A stretch of 17,524 nt of DNA from a virus (IMGVR_UViG_2713896784_000011); one strand, 5' to 3'. Positions 1 to 17,524 are shown, counted from the stretch's first letter. Notes: generated by a model from the letters alone, not told the origin. Program-made: numbers and translations.

Positions 1-395
1 GCCAGATGATAAGCATCCCGGAACAGCGTGTAACAGTCCGTCACCCCGTGCTCAAAGCGCCGCCCGGTGAGATGCGGCACACAGCGGAACTTATGAATCG
101 TCCCCCGGCAGACCAGCCACCACGGCAAATCACTCTGCACCTGCAGCCGCCGGTCGGCCTCACTCAGCCAGGGCAGACCACCGGGGTGGCTGTGGACCAG
201 CGCCACAATCTCACCCTGCATTTCTGCCTGCAGCCAGTCTTCCGGCGACATACGGAAATACGCCTCCGGCTCACCGGAGATATTCACGCAGGGGAAATAT
301 CTTTCCCCCTCCGGCGTGCTTACCACGAAGCCGCACGACTCCGCTGGCGCACATCGCCGGGCGTGCGCCAGAATCGCTGATTCTGTCTGTGTCAT
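1..395 (-). CDS. K: Tail tip assembly protein K, 5'-proximal part only (gene runs off the window start)
   Basis: Minus-strand frame open from ATG at 393-395 to the window edge; translation MTQTESAILAHARRCAPAESCGFVVSTPEGERYFPCVNISGEPEAYFRMSPEDWLQAEMQGEIVALVHSHPGG... matches my recollection of the lambda gpK N-terminus. Absent from the ORF track because no stop lies inside the window. Confidence 0.85.
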   Translation of the reverse strand, partial: MTQTESAILAHARRCAPAESCGFVVSTPEGERYFPCVNISGEPEAYFRMSPEDWLQAEMQGEIVALVHSHPGGLPWLSEADRRLQVQSDLPWWLVCRGTIHKFRCVPHLTGRRFEHGVTDCYTLFRDAYHL

Positions 396-400
396 GGGAT

Positions 401-1099
401 TTACTGCGAAAGTTTGTTAATGGAAAGGAAGCCGCCAAAGTTGCCGACGTTATTGCGGAACTTACAACCGCTCAGGCATTTGCTGCATTTATCCTTCGTG
501 ATATCGGACGTTGGCTGGTCATATTCATCCGCGACCGCCGGACCGTGATAACCGCACTCATCGCCGCGATAGGTCCAGGTGCAGGTGTTGGCCAGCATGA
601 TACGTCCCGGAAAAACAGCGCCGTCCGTTTCCGTCGGCGTGGACAGTACAAAAGAGGCACTCACCGCGCTCAGTTCGCTGCACTGCTCAATGCGCCAGCG
701 GCTGATCACCTCCTGCTCCGGATCGGCGTCGCTGTTTCCGTTGACGAAGTTCACCGCATCCAGAAAACGGGCGTAAACCTTACGCCGGACCACCGTTCCG
801 CCGACCAGACTCTGCAGGTCTTCCGCCATCCCCGTGACCATGCCGTGCAGGTTAGAAACCGTCAGTGTCGGACGGGCAGAACTGCCCTTGCCGTTCAGTT
901 CAAATCCCGTCCCCTGAATGGGGTATGCCTGATACTGCCGCCCCTGCCAGGTAACCGGCTCACCTTTTTCGTTCTGCTCATTACAGAAAAAATAACGTTC
1001 ACCACCGACCTCTGTCAGATCGATTTCCCAGAGCACCGCCTGGGCTGACTGAGTGAGGCGTGTCGTCTCATGATGTGTTTCCTGTGGAATATCCTGCAT
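401..1099 (-). CDS. L: Minor tail protein L (tail tip assembly)
   Basis: 232-aa ORF, ATG at 1097-1099; MQDIPQETHHETTRL...VLWEIDLTEVGGERYFFCNEQNEKGEPVTWQGRQYQ...CSKCLSGCKFRNNVGNFGGFLSINKLSQ closely matches lambda gpL as I recall it, including the C-terminal Cys cluster. Confidence 0.9.
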   Translation of the reverse strand: MQDIPQETHHETTRLTQSAQAVLWEIDLTEVGGERYFFCNEQNEKGEPVTWQGRQYQAYPIQGTGFELNGKGSSARPTLTVSNLHGMVTGMAEDLQSLVGGTVVRRKVYARFLDAVNFVNGNSDADPEQEVISRWRIEQCSELSAVSASFVLSTPTETDGAVFPGRIMLANTCTWTYRGDECGYHGPAVADEYDQPTSDITKDKCSKCLSGCKFRNNVGNFGGFLSINKLSQ

Positions 1100-1108
1100 C
1101 AGAGCCTC

Positions 1109-1438
1109 CTATGCCACGACCTGTTCAAAATCTGCCGTTATGGTTACCCACAGCGCCCCCACGCTTGCCGACCATTTACGACAAACCACCCTGATCGGTT
1201 TCCAGTCATAAGGTGGCGTCCACTGAAATGCACGGACGCCACCGTGCCGTTCCAGAAAGGCTTTTAAAGATGGGTGTTCACATTTACGAACACGTATCGT
1301 CACGCTGTAAGTCGACAACTGGTTATTCAGTCCCGCCGCACGACGCTGTTCATAACCATCGCCCAGCTTCACTGTCACCACTTTCGGCTCTGATACCACA
1401 TTCATATCCGGGCGCACTTTCCAGTGAAACGTCTCCAT
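1109..1438 (-). CDS. M: Minor tail protein M
   Basis: 109-aa ORF METFHWKVRPDMNVV...FEQVVA, same length and pattern as lambda gpM (MKTFRWKV...FEQVVN). Its ATG (1436-1438) overlaps the H stop (TAATG). Confidence 0.9.
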   Translation of the reverse strand: METFHWKVRPDMNVVSEPKVVTVKLGDGYEQRRAAGLNNQLSTYSVTIRVRKCEHPSLKAFLERHGGVRAFQWTPPYDWKPIRVVCRKWSASVGALWVTITADFEQVVA

Positions 1439-4400
1439 TACCGATATGCTCCACTTAACCGACCACCATCACGGGCCTGCTGTTGCATAAAGTCCGCTGC
1501 CGCTTTTTTCCCGAGGTCATAAACCGCCTTCAGGGCAGCCGGACCTATCTGCCCGTTCGTGCCATCGTTATTGATCTCGATGTTGTACTGCGGGGAAAAC
1601 ATCGCCATACCTGAACCCCCAATATCCGCCACAACCCCCAGCTTACCGTCAGCACCACGACGCAATGGCAGAATGGCTTCAGGTCCCGCTTCCCCCATCA
1701 CACCCGCGCCTTTTGCAAAAGCAAAAAACGTCGGACGGTTAACCACCGTGCCACTGTAACGACTCAAATCAGCAGACTGATAAATCCCCCCATTGGCATT
1801 CAGGGAAAGGCTGCTGAGATCAAATCCCAGTACACTGCCAATCCCTTTTATCGATTTCATCATGGTTGCCTGCGCCAGGATTTTCGCCATATCTGACAGC
1901 ACAGAAGAGGTGAAGGATTTGAAATTGAGTTTGCCGGTAGTGACAAAAGTTGCCAGGCCATTTCCCATGTTGCTGAAGGCTGACGAGAACACCTGTTCTG
2001 CTGTTTCTGCCGTATTATCTGCATCCACGGTAAAATCCTGAAATGCACGCAGGACTCCGTTTTTCCAGTTACCCTGTACAACTTCAAGCTGTTGCCAGTA
2101 ACGGCGATTCTCATTCAGTTGTCGGTTCAGGCTCTCCGTCAGCGCCTGCTCGGCCTTTCTGTAGTCATCCGTGTTATATGTCCCTTTCTGCTCACTATCC
2201 CGCCTCAACTGCTCCAGCTGTTGCTGGTATTTCTGGCGAAGACTCAGTTGTACCTGATATCGCTGTCGCTGCTGATCACCCATACCCACCGTGGCGATAT
2301 CCAGGTCATGTTGCTGACGCTGAGCGCGCTCTTCTTCAGCCAGTTGACTGGTCAGCTGAATTGTTTTTTTCTTCAGCTCGTTGAGTGCCGTCTGTTTCTG
2401 AAGCTCCTGCTGTTTTACATCCAGCAGCGTCAGTGCCTGAATCAGTTCATCTTTACGGGCCAGCACACTCTTTTCATCTGCCGTCAGTTTTTTCCCGTCC
2501 AGGTCGCTGATGCGCTGCTGCAGAGCCAGAAGCTGTTTACGCGCTTCTGTCATCCTTTCCGTGGCAATGCCTGCTGACTGTCTGGCAGCAGCAATCTGTC
2601 CTTCCACCTGTGCCTGTTGCTGACTGTACTGCAGCAATAACCGGGTGGCCTCATCATTACGGGTTTCGCGTGTTTTTTTCTTACCGGATGCCAGGGCTTT
2701 CTCGTAACGTTCATTTTCACGTTGTATCGCCGCATCCCTGACAGCCTGATCGGCGTACTGCATGGCATTAATACGCGCTATTTCACGCTGATGTCGTGCT
2801 GCTTCCGTTTCATTCATCCGGTTCAGTGCAGCATTTTCAGCATTACGGCGTTTCTGTTGCTCCTGATAATTCCGCTCTGCCTGCTCTTTTGCATCCTGCA
2901 AATCCTTCTGGCGTTTTTTCTCCTGAAGATCGTTAAGACGCTGCTGATCGTATTCAACCTGAGAAGATGATGCCGTCCAGGGGAGTCTTTTCGCCCGCGA
3001 CACTTTCTCCTGTAAAGCGGCAATCTGTTCATCCAGCGAGTCTTCACGACCAATATTCATGGCCGCATCCCAGAAACGACTCCACAAATCAGACAGATAC
3101 TTCAGCGTACTGCCAAGCGCATTGAGGTTATTATCAATATCCGCAGTACGCCGACCGGTTTCCTCTGCCAGTGCAGACATGGCTATCCGTGCAGCATCAC
3201 TGGACCGCCCCTGCTCCCCAAGGACGCGTATCTGCTCAAGCTGAGTGGCAGTAAGAAAATGCAGCTCATTGTCCAGAGCCTTCGCGGCATTTACAGGATC
3301 ATCCTTCAGCCGCTTAAACTGATTTATGGTATCGCTGACCGACTGGCCAACCGATCGCTCCATCTGTGCGGCAGCTCTCGCCACCATACCGATATCGTTT
3401 CCACGAAATGCACCACTCCCCACCACCTGAGCCAGCGCACCGGCTGCAGCATGTTGCGTGATACCATTCCCGGAAATAGCACGACTGAGCGTCCACAGCT
3501 GCCCGGCAGTGACTCCGGCATAATGCCCCGTCAGCGACAGCTGGCGGTTAAATTCTTCCCCCTCCTTCTGACCGTCATACCAGGCTTTACCCAGACCATA
3601 GACAGCCGCGGCAATACCGCCAATAACCGCTCCTGGCATCATGCCTTTCGGTGACATCAGTGTGTCTATCCACCCGGCACGGTTAGCCAGCGTTATTCCG
3701 GATCCCCTCAGCGCACCTAAATTGCCGCGGGCCAGTTCACCTATCAGAACGCCTATCTCCTGACGGGCTGCTGCACTTTTCAGACCCAGCGAATGCGTGG
3801 CTTTTCCTGCCTGCTCCATTTTGCGGATATACACTTCTGCAGCACTGCTTACCCCCAGCTGGGCAGCCTTAGCACGAAGCAACTCAGAAGAAGAAAGATT
3901 CTGGCGGGTTGCCTGCTCTTTAAGCTGACGGATAAACGCCACTTTCTGTCGGGTAGCCTCTTCCTCAGCCTGTGTAAGAACACGGGTTTTCGCCGTAACC
4001 TCAGAAATCAGCGCCAGATAATCCTGCTGACCAATCCCGCCACTGTTTCTGGCCTGTCGGATCTGTTGCTGAATACGCTGTAATTCCTGCAGCCCCGCAC
4101 CGGCCTGTTTCACACTGTCAATCTGACGATAAAACGCAGCAGCCGCTTTATCCTGAGCCTCCGCCAGAGCCATGGCCTGCGCCTGTTCCTCGCGCATTTT
4201 CTGGCTCAGTGCCTCCATACGCTGGCGGGTTTGCTCCACCTCGCGGGCCATGCGTTCATGAGCCTGTGCGCTCTTCTCCACCGTCTGCGCATGGACGGAT
4301 GCGGCTGTTGCAGCCGAAGAAGCCGCCTGCATTGTCTGCCGGGCGGCCTGAGTCTGACGCTCCATAAAACGCTGCATACGGGCAGAAGACCGTTCTGCAT

Positions 4401-4503
4401 CGCTGGCTGCACCATTCAGAAGGTTTTTGATACGGGGAATTTCATTTTTAAACTCTGCCGCATCAATCCCCAAATCAATGACCAGGTTGGCTATCTGGTC
4501 CAT
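1438..4503 (-). CDS. H: Tail tape measure protein (gpH-like), about 1021 aa
   Basis: Long ORF. The ORF-track N-terminus is a TTG extension; the likely true start is ATG 4501-4503 (MDQIANLVIDLGIDAAEF), preceded by GGAGG 8 nt upstream. Has a long Q/A/E/R-rich coiled-coil middle and a lambda gpH-like C-terminus (INNDGTNGQIGPAALKAVYD). Confidence 0.9.
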   Translation of the reverse strand: MDQIANLVIDLGIDAAEFKNEIPRIKNLLNGAASDAERSSARMQRFMERQTQAARQTMQAASSAATAASVHAQTVEKSAQAHERMAREVEQTRQRMEALSQKMREEQAQAMALAEAQDKAAAAFYRQIDSVKQAGAGLQELQRIQQQIRQARNSGGIGQQDYLALISEVTAKTRVLTQAEEEATRQKVAFIRQLKEQATRQNLSSSELLRAKAAQLGVSSAAEVYIRKMEQAGKATHSLGLKSAAARQEIGVLIGELARGNLGALRGSGITLANRAGWIDTLMSPKGMMPGAVIGGIAAAVYGLGKAWYDGQKEGEEFNRQLSLTGHYAGVTAGQLWTLSRAISGNGITQHAAAGALAQVVGSGAFRGNDIGMVARAAAQMERSVGQSVSDTINQFKRLKDDPVNAAKALDNELHFLTATQLEQIRVLGEQGRSSDAARIAMSALAEETGRRTADIDNNLNALGSTLKYLSDLWSRFWDAAMNIGREDSLDEQIAALQEKVSRAKRLPWTASSSQVEYDQQRLNDLQEKKRQKDLQDAKEQAERNYQEQQKRRNAENAALNRMNETEAARHQREIARINAMQYADQAVRDAAIQRENERYEKALASGKKKTRETRNDEATRLLLQYSQQQAQVEGQIAAARQSAGIATERMTEARKQLLALQQRISDLDGKKLTADEKSVLARKDELIQALTLLDVKQQELQKQTALNELKKKTIQLTSQLAEEERAQRQQHDLDIATVGMGDQQRQRYQVQLSLRQKYQQQLEQLRRDSEQKGTYNTDDYRKAEQALTESLNRQLNENRRYWQQLEVVQGNWKNGVLRAFQDFTVDADNTAETAEQVFSSAFSNMGNGLATFVTTGKLNFKSFTSSVLSDMAKILAQATMMKSIKGIGSVLGFDLSSLSLNANGGIYQSADLSRYSGTVVNRPTFFAFAKGAGVMGEAGPEAILPLRRGADGKLGVVADIGGSGMAMFSPQYNIEINNDGTNGQIGPAALKAVYDLGKKAAADFMQQQARDGGRLSGAYR

Positions 4504-4825
4504 AACGCACACCTCCGGAAATACCTTCCCCAAGATGCATCAGTTCTTCGTCCGTTCGCTCCGGTATCCCGTTCTCTTCCGGTAAAAGGCTGAAATCAGC
4601 CACCGCAGCATCACTGCTACCGGACACCATTCTCACGATCAATGCCTTCAGCGAGGCAAACTGCGCATCCATCCACACATCACTGAAGCTCTGCATCCGG
4701 AAATAATCGCCCCACTCACCAAGCTCAGTGGCCGACATTTCCGACAGCATCCGCCGCCAGTCTGCCCGCCGGAACTCCCGGGCAAGCCGCATGACAAACT
4801 GCATTTCCCGCGTCAGGACTTTTCC
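4475..4825 (-). CDS. T: T portion of the G-T tail assembly chaperone fusion, reached by -1 frameshift from G
   Basis: The -1 frame relative to G is open from just after an in-frame TGA through the end of G and on to 4475. It overlaps the 3' end of G, and the G stop lies 4 nt downstream of the heptamer GGAAAAG (4819-4825, minus strand). Same arrangement as lambda G/GT. Confidence 0.7.
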   Translation of the reverse strand, partial: GKVLTREMQFVMRLAREFRRADWRRMLSEMSATELGEWGDYFRMQSFSDVWMDAQFASLKALIVRMVSGSSDAAVADFSLLPEENGIPERTDEELMHLGEGISGGVRYGPDSQPGH

Positions 4826-5199
4826 GGCGTCAGCACCTCATGCTCCAAATCCCCGGCATTCTCAATGGCTCCCATACCGCTCAGCGACAGAACCATCTCC
4901 GCCCCCGCTCCCAGGGCATCATACGACCATGTTGTAATAACGGATGCGCAAAGCGTCTCAACATCCTGAGACTGTTCCGCATTCCACAGTGAGCGGGAAA
5001 CCAGCCAGGCATTGATATCCATCCCCATCCGCAGAAAAGCAATCTGTCGTTCAGCCTCCGGCAGTTCTCCCTCTTCGGCATCAAACTTTGCCGTTCGCTG
5101 CTGAACAAACGCCAGATATTCAATTCTCTGCAGCCCGGACAGCTCACTGAGCACCACGGACTGCTTTTCATAATTAAACGTGCCCTGTTTCAGAAACAT
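4813..5199 (-). CDS. G: Tail assembly chaperone G
   Basis: ORF track 4813..5241; likely start MFLKQGTFNYEK (ATG 5197-5199, or the adjacent ATG 5200-5202), with GGTGGAG just upstream. Lambda G also begins MFLK. Ends ...DLEHEVLTPEKS. Confidence 0.85.
   Translation of the reverse strand: MFLKQGTFNYEKQSVVLSELSGLQRIEYLAFVQQRTAKFDAEEGELPEAERQIAFLRMGMDINAWLVSRSLWNAEQSQDVETLCASVITTWSYDALGAGAEMVLSLSGMGAIENAGDLEHEVLTPEKS
4819..4825 (-). other. Candidate -1 programmed frameshift heptamer G_GAA_AAG
   Basis: Minus-strand sequence ccG GAA AAG TCC TGA. The A-site Lys codon AAG can re-pair to AAA, and the P-site GAA to GGA with a G-U wobble. Lambda uses G_GGA_AAG at the equivalent place. Confidence 0.55.
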
Positions 5200-5215
5200 C
5201 ATGTTCTCCACCTGC

Positions 5216-5239
5216 AAAAAAGCCCCGGATAACCGGGGC
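5216..5239 (-). terminator. Intrinsic terminator between V and G
   Basis: Minus strand reads GCCCCGG-TTAT-CCGGGGC followed by TTTTTT: a perfect 7-bp GC stem, 4-nt loop and T6. Confidence 0.6.
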
Positions 5240-5259
5240 AAATGATGAGTATCGTCCTG

Positions 5260-6003
5260 TTAACCTGCAGCGCTGACAGTCACCGCAGCCACAGCCACAA
5301 AATTCCCGTCAGCGGTCATGCCCACAATGCTGACGCTGCCCTGCTTCACGCCTTTCACCGTGGCCACAAGTCCGTTCAGGGTCACAGTGGCTGTCTGTGG
5401 ATCTGTCGAATGCACACTGATCGCTTTGTCACTGGCTCCGTCAGGTTTTACTGTAAAGGTCAGCGTGGTGGTTGCTCCCACATTGACACTGGCGGATGCC
5501 GGTGCCACCGTCAGCCCGGTAACGCCCACAGTTTCAGTGCCCTCCTCTGCCAGATATGGACGCCCCACACCGCTGATTTTCACTGTGCGGGTCATCACGT
5601 CTTTTGAGGCAATGGTTTTACCCAGTGAGCTCAGCCAGCCGCGGAAAACATCAACAGTGCCGTTGGGATATTTGATACGAAACGCGCAGACTTCACCGGA
5701 GTCGAACAACTGAACCAGTTTTTTCTGCCCGCTGTCACCCGGACGCCAGGCCAGCGTCGCCGAAGTATCACCAACGGATTTCTGCCCCTGGGTTGTCGTT
5801 TTCCAGTCTGCATCTTCATCATCGAGATAAGTGTCATCTTCTGCATCAGCGGTCATTTCGCCAGGTTGCAGATCCTTCACCATCGCAAGACGCAGCCAGT
5901 CAGTGTCCGACAAAGGGTTCGCAAACGCATCGCCGTTGCCGGTATACATCCAGAACGTCGTCCCCGCACCTTTCGTCTTTGCCAGTGGATTTGGCGTGGT
6001 CAT
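5260..6003 (-). CDS. V: Major tail protein V with C-terminal Ig-like domain
   Basis: Likely start ATG 6001-6003 (MTTPNPLAKTKGAGTTFWMY), with AAGGAGG 6 nt upstream. Strongly lambda gpV-like (YLDDEDADW, PNGTVDVFRGW). The C-terminal about 90 aa is Thr/Val-rich and resembles a Big_2-type Ig domain. Confidence 0.9.
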   Translation of the reverse strand: MTTPNPLAKTKGAGTTFWMYTGNGDAFANPLSDTDWLRLAMVKDLQPGEMTADAEDDTYLDDEDADWKTTTQGQKSVGDTSATLAWRPGDSGQKKLVQLFDSGEVCAFRIKYPNGTVDVFRGWLSSLGKTIASKDVMTRTVKISGVGRPYLAEEGTETVGVTGLTVAPASASVNVGATTTLTFTVKPDGASDKAISVHSTDPQTATVTLNGLVATVKGVKQGSVSIVGMTADGNFVAVAAVTVSAAG

Positions 6004-6013
6004 TACCACCTCC

Positions 6014-6415
6014 TTAATTCGTGTACGTGATCTGGTACGTGATTTCCGCCATCGCCCAGGTGGCCATCTCATTATCACGTTGATAGTTAAAACCGAGTGG
6101 GATCAGGGTGTCGATGAGTCCGGAAAGTGCCGATACATCATTCAGGGCCGGGAAAATGGTGCTCTCCATCCACATATCCAGCTCTGAATCCGGTGCCTGT
6201 GCCCGGATGAAGACAGCAATATGCAGAACAGCCTGCCAGTCATCTTCATCCGTCATTTTTCCGGTGTACTGAGCATCACTCAGCCACACCGCCACGGCAG
6301 GCAGTTCCTGCGCATCAACAAATGCCGGAAGCCCGTCAAAAAACGTGGCGCTGTCTCCACACTGTTCCCGAAGGCGTGCCAGTACGACCTGGCGGATTTG
6401 TGTATGTCGGTTCAT
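6014..6415 (-). CDS. U: Tail terminator protein U
   Basis: Contains ATFFDG...ELPAVAVWL...AQYTGK...SELDMWMES, matching the lambda gpU pattern. Chosen start ATG 6413-6415 overlaps the Z stop (ATGA); an upstream ATG at 6425-6427 is also possible. Confidence 0.85.
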   Translation of the reverse strand: MNRHTQIRQVVLARLREQCGDSATFFDGLPAFVDAQELPAVAVWLSDAQYTGKMTDEDDWQAVLHIAVFIRAQAPDSELDMWMESTIFPALNDVSALSGLIDTLIPLGFNYQRDNEMATWAMAEITYQITYTN

Positions 6416-6990
6416 CGGGTCAGCCATAACCTCAGTTGTTGTTTCAGTGCATACCCCAGCTGTTTCGGCATTTCCGCAGCAATGATGCGGTCGCGGGCAT
6501 CTTCAAATGCCTGTGTCAGCGGTCCGGACAGCGGGATTTTCACCACATCAATGGGGTAACGATTTTTGCCATCAATACGCCGCATCACATGCCAGCGACC
6601 ATTCGCCAGTTGCTGAATAAACGCATCCCGGAAAAGATATTTACCCACCTTCAGCACACTGCCACGGTACTGCAGTTTTCCACCACGCTGGGCCAGTCTG
6701 ACCCGGGCTGTCCCCAGCTTAATGGCGGGCAGATTGCCCCGGTTAACGCGGATCCTGGCCGTCATTTTTCCTGACGGACTGGCTTTAAACACCCGGACAC
6801 GCTGACGAACCAGTTTCAGGGGGATCCCTTTCACCTGGTTATCTCCCGCAACGGTATTCCCGGCAACCTGCCGGGTGGCAACCGAGCCCGCTTTCTGTGC
6901 CACACGGTTTATCGCCCATGCGCTGGCCTGTGGCACCATACGGGTATCAAGGCTGTTCAGATTGCGGATGGCATTCTCAAGCCCCTTCAT
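6412..6990 (-). CDS. Z: Tail completion protein Z
   Basis: 192-aa ORF MKGLENAIRNLNSL..., same size as lambda gpZ, with position and order conserved (between the FII-like gene and U). AGAGGTG lies upstream of the ATG. Confidence 0.8.
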   Translation of the reverse strand: MKGLENAIRNLNSLDTRMVPQASAWAINRVAQKAGSVATRQVAGNTVAGDNQVKGIPLKLVRQRVRVFKASPSGKMTARIRVNRGNLPAIKLGTARVRLAQRGGKLQYRGSVLKVGKYLFRDAFIQQLANGRWHVMRRIDGKNRYPIDVVKIPLSGPLTQAFEDARDRIIAAEMPKQLGYALKQQLRLWLTR

Positions 6991-7001
6991 CCCACACCTC
7001 T

Positions 7002-7277
7002 TTACTCAATAAAGATCATTGGCTTACCGTTAAAGCGTTCATGCCGTGTGACCGTCCATTGTTGTCCGTCATAAACAACGCGATCCCCGCGCCGTGGGCG
7101 GTATCCCGAAGAAAACACCACCAGAGAGACCGCAGGTCCGGACAGAGCATTCAGCTCTGCCAGTGTTTCTCCCGGGATCACAGTCATATCGACATCATTA
7201 ATCGAGGCTGTCTTTCCCATCTTTCTGACCGTGATAGCATCCATACGCGCTGCCAGCCGGGAAAAGGGATCAGACAT
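7002..7277 (-). CDS. Head-tail joining protein, gpFII-like
   Basis: 91-aa ORF with an RRGDRVVYDGQQWTV motif reminiscent of lambda FII (RRGDTLTIGEENFWV). Sits between the head genes and Z. Its start overlaps the stop of the upstream gene. Confidence 0.65.
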   Translation of the reverse strand: MSDPFSRLAARMDAITVRKMGKTASINDVDMTVIPGETLAELNALSGPAVSLVVFSSGYRPRRGDRVVYDGQQWTVTRHERFNGKPMIFIE

Positions 7278-7593
7278 TGAGTTTTACCGGCACTTCTTCT
7301 GCACTGGTTCCGGCATCTGCCCAGACAACCCCGACCAGCGGATCAGAGCCGCTGTTAGTCAGCTGAACTTTTCCTGACTTCAGATAAACCTTCTTACCCG
7401 TTTTCATGTCATCCGTTTTCAGCTTAGGCAGCATAAACACACCTTCGGTCATGCCGTCGCCTGTTTCACCCTGTGGAATATCGGTCAGCGCCACCGCAAA
7501 AACATCGCCCACCTGCACCAGATCTCCGCTGCTGATGGCTGCACTGGCAACAATCGCCACCGTTTTTCCTTCTTCTACAAAATTCTTTGCCAT
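7270..7593 (-). CDS. Small head-associated protein of unknown function (the family often mis-annotated RecA/RadA-like in Gifsy-type prophages)
   Basis: Likely start ATG 7591-7593 (MAKNFVEEGKTV), with GGAGA 7 nt upstream; the ORF-track N-terminus is an extension. Lies immediately downstream of the capsid gene. Confidence 0.65.
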   Translation of the reverse strand: MAKNFVEEGKTVAIVASAAISSGDLVQVGDVFAVALTDIPQGETGDGMTEGVFMLPKLKTDDMKTGKKVYLKSGKVQLTNSGSDPLVGVVWADAGTSAEEVPVKLNV

Positions 7594-7636
7594 AACTGTC
7601 TCCGCACAGCCCCGTTCAGGGGCTGATTTCAGGTAC

Positions 7637-7656
7637 AAAAAAAGCCCTTACGGGCC
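7637..7656 (-). terminator. Intrinsic terminator downstream of the capsid gene
   Basis: Minus strand reads GGCCC-GTAA-GGGC(T) followed by TTTTTTT: a short GC stem with a GNRA-type tetraloop, then a T7 run. Confidence 0.5.
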
Positions 7657-7679
7657 ATCAGAGTTGTTGTCTGCGACGT

Positions 7680-15972: not shown

Positions 15973-16023
15973 AAGGTTCCCGATGTGTGTTACATATCAT
16001 TTCTCCACGGGGAATATCCCCAC

Positions 16024-16073
16024 GCCAGCGCAGACTCTTTTACCCGTTCTCTTCTGCGCTGGCTCTTTTTTAT
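16024..16073 (+). terminator. Plus-strand hairpin plus T-tract (11-bp perfect inverted repeat)
   Basis: GCCAGCGCAGA (16024-16034) pairs perfectly with TCTGCGCTGGC (16053-16063) across an 18-nt loop, followed by TCTTTTTTAT. The long loop makes a protein-binding inverted repeat an alternative reading. Confidence 0.45.
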
Positions 16074-16252
16074 TATGCTGCTGCATTTACCTCTGGCACC
16101 ATGCTTTCTATCTCAACACAATACGTGGTACTTCTTGTAACCAATATCATAACGATTAATCGACATAGAATTTCTCCCGTGTACAGGAACAGAGTTAAAA
16201 AGCCGGAACCGGAATCAAATCACAGGATGACCATCTGCCAGTGGCAGGTCAT

Positions 16253-16279
16253 AAAAAAAAGGCCGCGCCATGCGCAGCC
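16253..16279 (-). terminator. Strong minus-strand intrinsic terminator
   Basis: Minus strand reads GGCTGCGC-ATG-GCGCGGCC followed by T8: an 8-bp GC-rich stem with one G-U pair. The plus-strand version has a C-A mismatch and no T-run, so it is strand-specific. Confidence 0.6.
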
Positions 16280-16465
16280 AGAACTCACAAGGAAAATGAT
16301 AGAAGGAAATAACATTAGTGATGTACGCATGGCGCCTCCCGCTAAGTTCTGCAATGATCAAACAGAACTCGCTACGTGCCCTTAAAACTCGATCATTTAG
16401 CCCCTCCAAGGAGGATTCACCATGCGGTTGATTTTTTAATAAACAGTAAACAAAAAAGTCAAGAA

Positions 16466-16576
16466 TTATTCATTCTGTTCTTTCATCATCGGCCACAGCA
16501 ATACCACAATGCCGCAGACCAGAGCGCCATCAGTCAGTACCAACATTATCCTGCTGGTGAAATCCATCATCACCAT
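16466..16576 (-). CDS. Hypothetical 36-aa hydrophobic peptide
   Basis: ATG 16574-16576 to TAA 16466-16468 translates to MVMMDFTSRIMLVLTDGALVCGIVVLLWPMMKEQNE: one predicted transmembrane helix and a charged tail. No convincing SD. Below the ORF-track size cutoff. Speculative. Confidence 0.2.
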   Translation of the reverse strand: MVMMDFTSRIMLVLTDGALVCGIVVLLWPMMKEQNE

Positions 16577-16709
16577 CACTAAAAGCAGGATCACAACAGC
16601 AAGCAGACACAGTTTATAAAACAATGTTCAGGAAACGCATTCAGCATGCCTAAGGTTCTATTCCTACGAATAGCCAACTTGCAACTTAAAATATTATTTA
16701 TGCAGCCAA

Positions 16710-17468
16710 TTAAATTCTGGTCCTTACAATATCAACCTGAAGATTCTTATCTTGTGCTGATTGATAAATGACAAACCTTTTACTACCTGCATTGAAAGAA
16801 GTAGACAAAACCAGACAATTATCATAACGAGCAAGAACATAATACCAACCATCATTATAATTAATCATTTCATATTCTTTCTTAAACTGTGGTTTGTAAT
16901 ATCCTGTCAGAAATGAAAAAAGCCAGAAATATGCCACAAAAGCAATCATCACAATCTCAAAAAAATGTTTTTTTATAAATGGCTTATCATAGAAGCATGA
17001 TACCGATAAAAATCGCCCATAAGATCTTATCGAAATTGTAACCGCCAGCGCAATCGCTGCTGACAGTAGCAAAAGAGGTACCTGAATCTTCTGTCTCAAT
17101 ATAGAAAACTCAATAATTGCCGGCACAAACAATAATTCCACAGCAAAATAAAGGCGAAATACATTTAGCTCTTGCATAGAATGTTTTCTTTTCACTGCGA
17201 AAAAGAATACAACACCAATACCCCAACCGATAAGAAATATAGCAATGACGATAACTGCAAAAAATAAACTTCTGGCAACATCATCAACACCTGCACCTAC
17301 AATCCACCATGGGAAGCCGTAGTAAAAAGAAGTACCCCATCCATAGAAATAAGCACTCCCCCATCCAAGGCATCCCATGTAGGCAATAAAAAGTGAAGAA
17401 CTCCTGAGCAGCGCACCATCCTTCATAACCACCCCAATACAAGATGATAACATTGGCTTACAACTCAT
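16710..17468 (-). CDS. Hypothetical polytopic inner-membrane protein encoded in AT-rich cargo DNA
   Basis: 252-aa ORF with about five hydrophobic helices and an approximately 60-aa hydrophilic C-terminal domain (KPQFKKEYEMINYNDGWYYVLARYDNCLVLSTSFNAGSKRFVIYQSAQDKNLQVDIVRTRI). Strongly AT-rich codon usage, unlike the flanking phage genes. The real start may be the internal ATG 17424-17426 (MKDGALL..., GGGGTGG upstream). I recognise no family. Confidence 0.6.
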   Translation of the reverse strand: MSCKPMLSSCIGVVMKDGALLRSSSLFIAYMGCLGWGSAYFYGWGTSFYYGFPWWIVGAGVDDVARSLFFAVIVIAIFLIGWGIGVVFFFAVKRKHSMQELNVFRLYFAVELLFVPAIIEFSILRQKIQVPLLLLSAAIALAVTISIRSYGRFLSVSCFYDKPFIKKHFFEIVMIAFVAYFWLFSFLTGYYKPQFKKEYEMINYNDGWYYVLARYDNCLVLSTSFNAGSKRFVIYQSAQDKNLQVDIVRTRI

Positions 17469-17524
17469 AACAAAAGCAATTCAATGCCGTCAAGAGGTTA
17501 CAGGCTAAAAAAACTCTATTACAT

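Follow-up and report, generated by a model that had tools for sequence, protein, structure and literature searches.

We analysed a viral stretch of 17,524 nt (IMGVR_UViG_2713896784_000011, hereafter the window), the late region of a lambdoid prophage whose genes lie on the minus strand, and found that the AT-rich gene near its end is cargo of the slot between the antiterminator gene Q and the holin gene S, not host DNA. The gene most likely spans positions 16710-17426 on the minus strand, and its predicted product of 238 aa is, judged from profile and alignment evidence, a full-length member of the TfpB/STM1630 family (PF27470). Taken alone, the family assignment and the status as prophage cargo are held with high confidence. 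As to its role, the reading we favour, with confidence that reaches about the halfway mark, is that the gene encodes an accessory envelope or host-adaptation protein, as suggested by analogy with its Salmonella relative STM1630. The gene itself is already catalogued: phage 434 has an identical copy that is annotated, and the protein has entries in Pfam and PHROGs and a family name in the Prokaryotic Genome Annotation Pipeline (PGAP), all without an assigned function.

Gene model, family and predicted structure

ORF calling gave a longest open reading frame (ORF) of 252 aa at 16710-17468 on the minus strand, and PGAP starts the same frame at 17453 in identical sequence, yielding a 247-aa 'hypothetical protein' (WP_001302581.1). 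We prefer the ATG at 17426 because the alignment with homologues of other genera (Citrobacter, Salmonella, Klebsiella, Yersinia and others), which are 237-238 aa long, begins at Met15 of the 252-aa ORF, and because a Shine-Dalgarno-like GGGGTGG (17435-17429) lies directly 5' of this ATG, whereas the other candidate starts have none. The resulting coding sequence (CDS), for a predicted inner-membrane protein, draws on the ORF, the homologue alignment, this Shine-Dalgarno-like element, PF27470, PHROG 1521, the AlphaFold (AF2) model and the ratio of nonsynonymous to synonymous substitution rates (dN/dS), with 17453 and 17468 as alternative starts.

The base composition of the ORF is unlike that of the rest of the phage, with a GC content of 36.3% versus 53.7% over positions 1-14700. 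Between these extremes lie the lysis genes (51.1%), the stretch 15890-16465 (42.4%) and the stretch 16466-16709 (41.4%). An 85-base run of N at 15300-15384 masks the middle of the signal-arrest-release (SAR) endolysin gene, which encodes an RrrD-like lysozyme, and depresses GC in the sliding windows around it. The original prediction, made from the window alone, had rightly described the ORF as AT-rich and had placed a sharp switch in composition at about 15890; the drop is real but stepwise, and it is lowest over the ORF itself rather than sharp at that point. The further statement that this is the only long ORF in the AT-rich stretch is nearly right, although the stretch also holds a 52-aa DUF3927 gene, an STnc100/PasD-like RNA element and a 132-aa plus-strand ORF called by PGAP. 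Homologues have a GC content of 30-41% in every host examined.

Pairwise comparison of the 238-aa gene with the Salmonella, Citrobacter and enterotoxigenic Escherichia coli (ETEC) copies gave dN/dS values of 0.12-0.20, with synonymous sites near saturation. In the alignment, the N-terminal 80 and C-terminal 75 residues are near-invariant across proteins of 39-100% identity. By these comparative measures, the ORF is a real gene under purifying selection.

The identical protein (P0001) and all of its 104 matches in a large protein collection carry a precomputed assignment to PF27470.1, a family named TfpB. One cluster member was deposited as 'protein tfpB', an E. coli homologue is labelled 'STM1630 family protein' by PGAP, and the protein matches phrog_1521 (E = 2e-154), whose category is 'unknown function'. 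Local Pfam and NCBIfam scans of the protein returned nothing significant; PF27470 is newer than the Pfam copy scanned. A Pfam scan of 49 diverse family members found no second family. The view that the protein can be assigned to no family is therefore corrected by these matches. A confident match to a known family had been named in advance as evidence against the original prediction; such a match was found in the letter, but the family itself is without an assigned function. A literature search found no paper on the function of Moraxella TfpB, and the PilB-like TfpB described in Acinetobacter is unrelated.

An exhaustive profile search over 1.84 billion representative proteins (cut-off E <= 0.001) recovered only 72 representatives, so the family is small. 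Its members fall into three tiers: Enterobacterales proteins with 39-100% identity; proteins with 20-29% identity from Moraxella, Pasteurellaceae and Neisseriaceae, mapped by genome scan; and proteins with 12-18% identity from Mangrovibacter, Enterobacter and Klebsiella aerogenes. The Moraxella/Pasteurellaceae clade was recovered by profile search at E = 1e-41 to 1e-19, and hhalign aligned it with the enterobacterial clade over 232 columns (probability 100%, E = 4e-50). The 34 confirmed genome loci outside Enterobacterales all belong to Moraxella, Pasteurellaceae or Neisseriaceae, which are animal-associated groups. Within E. coli, 1197 of 5426 complete genomes carry a family member, and the O157:H7 genomes listed have it in two places each (median 2 per genome).

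Hydropathy analysis detected four strong hydrophobic stretches with peaks at residues 58-76, 92-110, 114-132 and 155-173. The N-terminal segment, rich in Gly and aromatic residues, remains below the hydropathy threshold and appears as a helix in the AlphaFold model only. A first model built with close homologues was poor (predicted local distance difference test, pLDDT, 58.8), and a second with distant clades added reached a pLDDT of 79.1 and a predicted template modelling score (pTM) of 0.72. The second model contains five transmembrane (TM) helices at residues 10-36, 47-79, 84-111, 116-137 and 155-181, followed by a C-terminal beta domain of about 55 residues (184-235) with five strands, in agreement with the polytopic protein of about five TM helices and a small C-terminal domain that had been proposed. 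The N-terminus would lie in the cytoplasm and the beta domain in the periplasm, because the loops carry 13 Lys/Arg residues on one side versus 3 on the other. Alignments, hydropathy and the AF2 model together show an architecture common to the family, consisting of about 235-250 aa, five TM helices, a C-terminal beta domain and the motifs AY.YGWG...YYG.PWW and ARSL, and the protein has all of these. Foldseek searches with the model found no match below E = 0.02 in BFVD or PDB, so no solved or viral structural relative was found; the weak matches of the beta domain to SH3-like barrels were not significant, and this relationship was rejected. A PDB profile search by sequence gave no match.

Position in lambdoid prophages and copies outside them

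Hundreds of E. coli O157:H7 genomes contain positions 15880-17524 with 100% identity. With a longer query, terminase, portal and tail genes were found on one side of the window and Q, YlcG, LpxR and nin genes on the other. Q itself lies 183 bp past the window end in the identical O157:H7 genomes, in line with the suggestion that it may be found beyond the window. The proposed location in the moron slot between Q/pR' and S also holds: the Q and nin region lies upstream, lysis and head genes lie downstream, the segment is dispensable, and the slot is variable. This variability emerged from the comparison of neighbourhoods across relatives that the original prediction had recommended, covering phage 434, O157:H7 and the annotated neighbourhoods of 80 IMG/VR loci, among which the content between Q and the lysis genes differs. 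The Q/nin genes upstream and the lysis/head genes downstream rule out that the gene is host chromosome flanking a truncated prophage.

The IMG/VR survey comprised the top 80 matches, all with identical gene copies, and so informs on flanks and not on diversity. The Q gene upstream was of the Q82 type in 32 contigs and of the lambda type in 42, while six contigs were too short to tell. A DUF3927 gene lay 3' of the TfpB-family gene in 79 of the 80 loci, and an esterase gene was present in 26. A Yersinia homologue with 45% identity stands directly behind a third type of Q, and the Q proteins preceding the gene belong to three different Pfam families (PF03589, PF06323 and PF06530). When the lambda-Q and Q82 contexts were aligned, the 98 bases 5' of the ATG were identical, mismatches began at base 99, and divergence was complete beyond about -145, just after the terminator. 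On this comparative evidence, the TfpB-family gene, the DUF3927/TciB-like mini-protein and the PasD/STnc100-like RNA form a mobile cassette that recombines behind different types of Q. A strong terminator and variable DNA, 0.8-2.8 kb in length, separate the gene from the holin.

Known cargo of the Q-to-S slot includes stx in Shiga toxin (Stx) phages and nmpC in DLP12, as well as nanS-p/SASA esterase genes. The window gene shares with them the slot, its variability and dispensability, an atypical base composition and, probably, Q-dependent transcription. However, the classical products are secreted toxins, a porin and an esterase, whereas the window gene encodes an integral inner-membrane protein without known activity. 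Unlike classical cargo, moreover, it belongs to a fixed cassette that directly follows the terminator behind three unrelated Q families.

Of 50,697 phage records searched by tblastn, only three contained the gene; they stand for two phages, and one of these is the classical phage 434, at 100% identity. The 434 copy encodes an identical protein, CPT_434_68, annotated as 'putative membrane protein' (OL657226). The gene order in 434 is a truncated Q fragment, LpxR, YlcG, a Q82-like Q, a terminator, CPT_434_68, TciB (DUF3927), a small ORF, a SASA esterase, a pinholin and a SAR endolysin, and the late transcript reaches CPT_434_68 as its first ORF 137 nt past the terminator. The window prophage resembles 434 in the order of Q, terminator, gene, TciB/DUF3927 and small-RNA region (an annotated small ORF in 434) but differs in that 434 has a SASA-family esterase between the cassette and the holin, as well as another holin allele, whereas the window prophage runs straight to the holin. 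According to the 434 record, the part in which 434B differs extends from YlcG to the end of the lysis genes. In 434B, a propagated clear-plaque phage, Q, the late promoter and the lysis region are replaced by DLP12 DNA (PMC9119081). 434B is thus a propagated phage without the segment, and therefore the gene is dispensable for phage growth.

The gene is also found apart from intact phages. The Salmonella orthologue (P0075) stands alone on the chromosome as a remnant between steB and sseJ, with no Q, DUF3927 partner or lysis genes. It corresponds to STM1630 (SL1344_1560): the size of 717 bp and the adjacency to sseJ are the same, and the published deletion primer encodes the N-terminal NSSMLLAYLGGLGWG. 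STM1630 resembles the window protein in its length of 238 aa, its 46% identity over the full length, its conserved motifs and its similarly low GC content; it differs in being a chromosomal remnant with its own promoter and a long leader, and it is the only copy with published phenotypes. In Citrobacter rodentium, a copy with 66% identity lies between a split LpxR gene and the adh-MCP-LysR genes (MCP, methyl-accepting chemotaxis protein) that also flank STM1630. This arrangement suggests that the Citrobacter (L045) and Salmonella (L004) copies are remnants of an old prophage late region at one shared site, where different virulence genes were gained later. An ETEC copy with 59% identity (L041-L044) is divergent from eltAB, about 870 bp from eltA, with estB (encoding heat-stable toxin STb) about 3 kb away; it occurs on more than 900 contigs, is flanked by insertion sequence transposase and integrase genes, and lies on plasmids in at least some cases. 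No DUF3927 partner was found beside the Salmonella, Citrobacter or ETEC remnant copies. These neighbourhoods indicate that the gene outlasts the phage around it.

The Pasteurellaceae and Neisseriaceae homologues stand alone, with genes for P-II, esterase D, a sigma factor, TsaB, Smr and HscB among their neighbours. An all-against-all search of the 34 non-enteric loci revealed no conserved neighbour beyond lineage-specific synteny. No partner is conserved across the family, and therefore the protein probably acts on its own, without a dedicated partner gene. In Glaesserella parasuis (L022, 6982-9044), the gene adjoining the homologue has a cytolethal distending toxin A/C domain, and two further ORFs have the sizes of cdtB and cdtA.

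In Moraxella lacunata and M. equi, the gene adjoins a piv-like gene of 328 aa and is flanked by a pilin segment without a promoter and by a pilin gene that is expressed; the M. bovis locus is likewise in the pilin inversion region. We take the Moraxella locus to be the classical tfpQ/I-tfpB-piv inversion region. TfpB of M. bovis and M. lacunata is homologous to the window protein over its whole length (hhalign probability 100%) with a similar aligned length, and the architecture of five TM helices and a beta domain is expected for it. It differs in its identity of 20-29% and in its location, which is an invertible type IV pilin region next to piv and not a phage. The tfpB frames of M. lacunata (L014) and M. 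equi (L018), both at 6001-6733, stop after 195-197 codons while similarity continues to about 6733, so these pilin-locus copies appear to be frameshifted.

Proposed role in host adaptation and the rival explanations

Published work on STM1630 provides the functional data for the family. The gene is bound by H-NS and is expressed in medium that induces Salmonella pathogenicity island 2 (SPI-2) and inside macrophages; in calves and chicks, signature-tagged mutants show attenuation, intramacrophage replication rises when the gene is cleanly deleted from strain 4/74, and every ST313 isolate examined has a destroyed -10 box (PMC6785131 Text S1). Moreover, STM1630 clusters with the SPI-2 regulon in a compendium of regulator mutants (PMC2639726). 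The report in transposon screens that STM1630 is required for growth was set aside, since the authors ascribed it to H-NS blocking insertion (PMC6785131 Text S1).

Taken together, we hypothesize that the window gene is most likely a lysogenic-conversion gene whose product would alter an envelope property that matters in the animal host, and that it would not serve lysis, the virion or replication. It would be transcribed by Q read-through after induction and, by analogy with STM1630, probably also from its own H-NS-silenced promoter under host-like conditions. Behind this proposal stand the survival of the gene alone beside sseJ, LpxR and eltAB/estB in decayed prophages, the low dN/dS, the STM1630 data and the host-associated distribution of the family. 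By the same analogy, we infer that the published STM1630 data would favour a host-adaptation envelope factor over superinfection exclusion.

Several observations weigh against this proposal. The evidence for host adaptation comes from the Salmonella copy and not from an E. coli or phage copy, and STM1630 is only 46% identical to the phage copy and sits in another regulatory context, with a promoter about 215 nt 5' of its start that by eye does not resemble the phage leader. In the window, the promoter-like match is no better than chance, so expression in the lysogen may depend wholly on leak-through of the terminator. Sampling bias may account for the family's host association, and neither Foldseek (BFVD, PDB) nor the PDB profile search found a relative in sequence or structure that suggests an activity. 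In addition, the hypermotility described for an STM1630 deletion (PMC4219756) was dropped from consideration, because a clean deletion failed to reproduce it (PMC4534456).

Superinfection exclusion or another anti-phage function is an unlikely alternative, though the most probable of the rivals: a protein made at a low level in the lysogen would block entry of incoming DNA or another membrane step through its predicted periplasmic domain. A prophage cargo slot, a polytopic membrane protein with a small beta domain predicted to be periplasmic and dispensability for phage growth all suit such a role, and the phage partner falls in a PHROG annotated as 'TciB-like inhibition of cell division or resistance to colicin'. 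Several known exclusion proteins have the architecture of a polytopic membrane protein with a small periplasmic domain, and HK97 gp15, P22 SieA and T4 Imm are small phage- or prophage-encoded membrane proteins that are dispensable for growth. The likeness to these three is one of functional analogy only: no similarity in sequence or fold was detected, and the TfpB family also occurs outside phages. Moreover, no defence or exclusion family in PADLOC matched at E <= 1, Foldseek against BFVD gave no viral structural match, and the category of phrog_1521 offers no hint of exclusion. The original prediction's guess at exclusion or abortive infection gained no support. The Pasteurellaceae, Neisseriaceae and Moraxella homologues are single genes among housekeeping genes, outside prophages and defence islands; the remnant copies are long-lived at fixed chromosomal sites beside virulence genes; and the Salmonella copy is regulated with intracellular virulence genes. 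A late lytic helper, made only after Q antitermination and acting with the adjacent lysis genes in membrane conditioning, lysis timing or release, is less probable again. Its position as the first ORF of the late transcript in 434, upstream of the holin, and the failure to find a convincing promoter of its own in the window are what such a membrane protein would lead one to expect, but the variable DNA and the strong terminator separate it from the holin, 434B grows on a different cassette without it, and it is kept without lysis genes in Salmonella, Citrobacter, ETEC plasmids and Pasteurellaceae. A protein of 238 aa with five TM helices is also unlike holins and antiholins. A holin, antiholin or lysis accessory would be small, with one to four TM helices, and would be inherited and transcribed together with the endolysin and spanin genes; with five helices, an intervening terminator and variable DNA, and copies that lack lysis genes, the gene was rejected as a candidate for this class.

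The Moraxella locus raises the prospect, which we consider just as doubtful as a lytic helper, that the protein modulates type IV filaments (type IV pili, type II secretion or competence pseudopili) by binding pilin-like subunits or the inner-membrane platform. The gene that gave the family its name lies inside the invertible type IV pilin locus with piv and pilin genes, and the non-enteric members come from Moraxella, Pasteurellaceae and Neisseriaceae, which rely on type IV filaments for natural competence. The ETEC copy adjoins eltAB, and the heat-labile (LT) toxin leaves the cell through type II secretion. However, linkage to pilin is confined to Moraxella, and the neighbourhoods in other genera share no recurrent pilus or secretion gene; neither the window nor phage 434 nor the loci of Pasteurellaceae and Neisseriaceae show a linked pilin or pilus-assembly gene. 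Apparent frameshifts in the M. lacunata and M. equi copies (ORF of 195-197 aa) indicate that the gene is not needed for piliation there, and the taxonomic pattern is confounded with animal association. A broader version of this idea, slightly more doubtful still, is that TfpB/STM1630 proteins make up an unrecognised class that modulates type IV filament machines from the inner membrane, and that lambdoid phages would place one of them first in their late operon to reprogramme pilus- or secretion-dependent traits of the host, such as toxin export or the uptake of competing DNA and phages. The evidence that points to it is purely positional, namely the place in the Moraxella pilin locus, the restriction of non-Enterobacterales members to Moraxella, Pasteurellaceae and Neisseriaceae, and the eltAB and cdt neighbourhoods. 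Least probable of all is a functionless passenger carried along by late-region recombination. No phenotype is known in E. coli, ST313 has lost the Salmonella promoter without obvious cost, and truncated and frameshifted copies are common in databases; yet strong purifying selection across genera (dN/dS 0.12-0.20), near-invariant motifs in proteins of 39-100% identity and independent retention after prophage decay in Salmonella, Citrobacter and ETEC are hard to reconcile with a lack of function.

If true, a host-adaptation or phage-exclusion function would be a widespread accessory trait of the prophages of pathogenic E. coli. The gene is promoter-proximal in the late operon, in the slot that holds Shiga toxin in Stx phages, and its relatives adjoin sseJ, LpxR, the LT/STb genes and a cdt operon. 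An uncharacterised membrane protein in the Q-to-S slot will not surprise a specialist, and as it stands this is an ordinary cargo gene; its recurrence behind three unrelated Q families and its survival beside toxins and effectors make it worth a bench test. Its function is readily testable, as 434 can be compared directly with 434B, clean mutants of Salmonella are available, and the small protein has no conserved partner.

Neighbouring elements

The leader upstream of the gene (17427-17524, minus strand) is identical behind the lambda-type and 82-type Q genes. It contains a weak sigma-70-like match at 17473-17444 (TTGTTA-18-TATCAT with a TG), of a kind found at chance level (5 found versus 5.5 expected). 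In phage 434 (L002, 3770-3865, just past the window end), a promoter-like pair TTGCAA-17-TATACT overlaps the 3' end of Q and is followed by the annotated terminator; a transcript of about 55 nt is possible from this arrangement, which would be a pR'/tR' small RNA comparable to those of Stx phages.

Downstream of the gene, 16466-16624 on the minus strand encodes the DUF3927/TciB-like mini membrane protein of 52 aa (PF13064, E = 3e-14), which belongs to phrog_1470, the PHROG with the TciB-like annotation quoted above. The STnc100/PasD-like small-RNA element follows at 16250-16455 (minus strand); it matches Rfam RF02076 over the full model length with 37.7 bits (E = 3.8e-6), below the gathering score of 47. 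PasD small RNAs are related to STnc100 and adjoin Q and LpxR in such prophages (bioRxiv 10.64898/2026.05.13.724894). A strong intrinsic terminator, with a stem at 16279-16261 and a subsequent T run, closes the element and likely marks the 3' end of the cassette. Two conflicting protein calls overlap the element, namely the PGAP ORF of 132 aa (15987-16385, plus strand) and the small ORF of phage 434, which corresponds to 16215-16409 on the minus strand of the window. The small RNA Esr41 of enterohaemorrhagic E. coli has a weak match at 15984-16073 (plus strand) that is probably not significant (32 bits versus a gathering score of 102, E = 0.001).

The cargo slot is bounded downstream by the class II holin gene (15629-15844, minus strand), identified by ORF calling and by PGAP on identical sequence, with which the lysis cassette begins. 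Farther downstream, an identical O157:H7 genome (L040, 4653-6234) has the portal gene (9652-11233 of the window, minus strand) annotated as two CDS of 336 bp and 1125 bp, which suggests a split or frameshifted portal and hence a possibly defective prophage.

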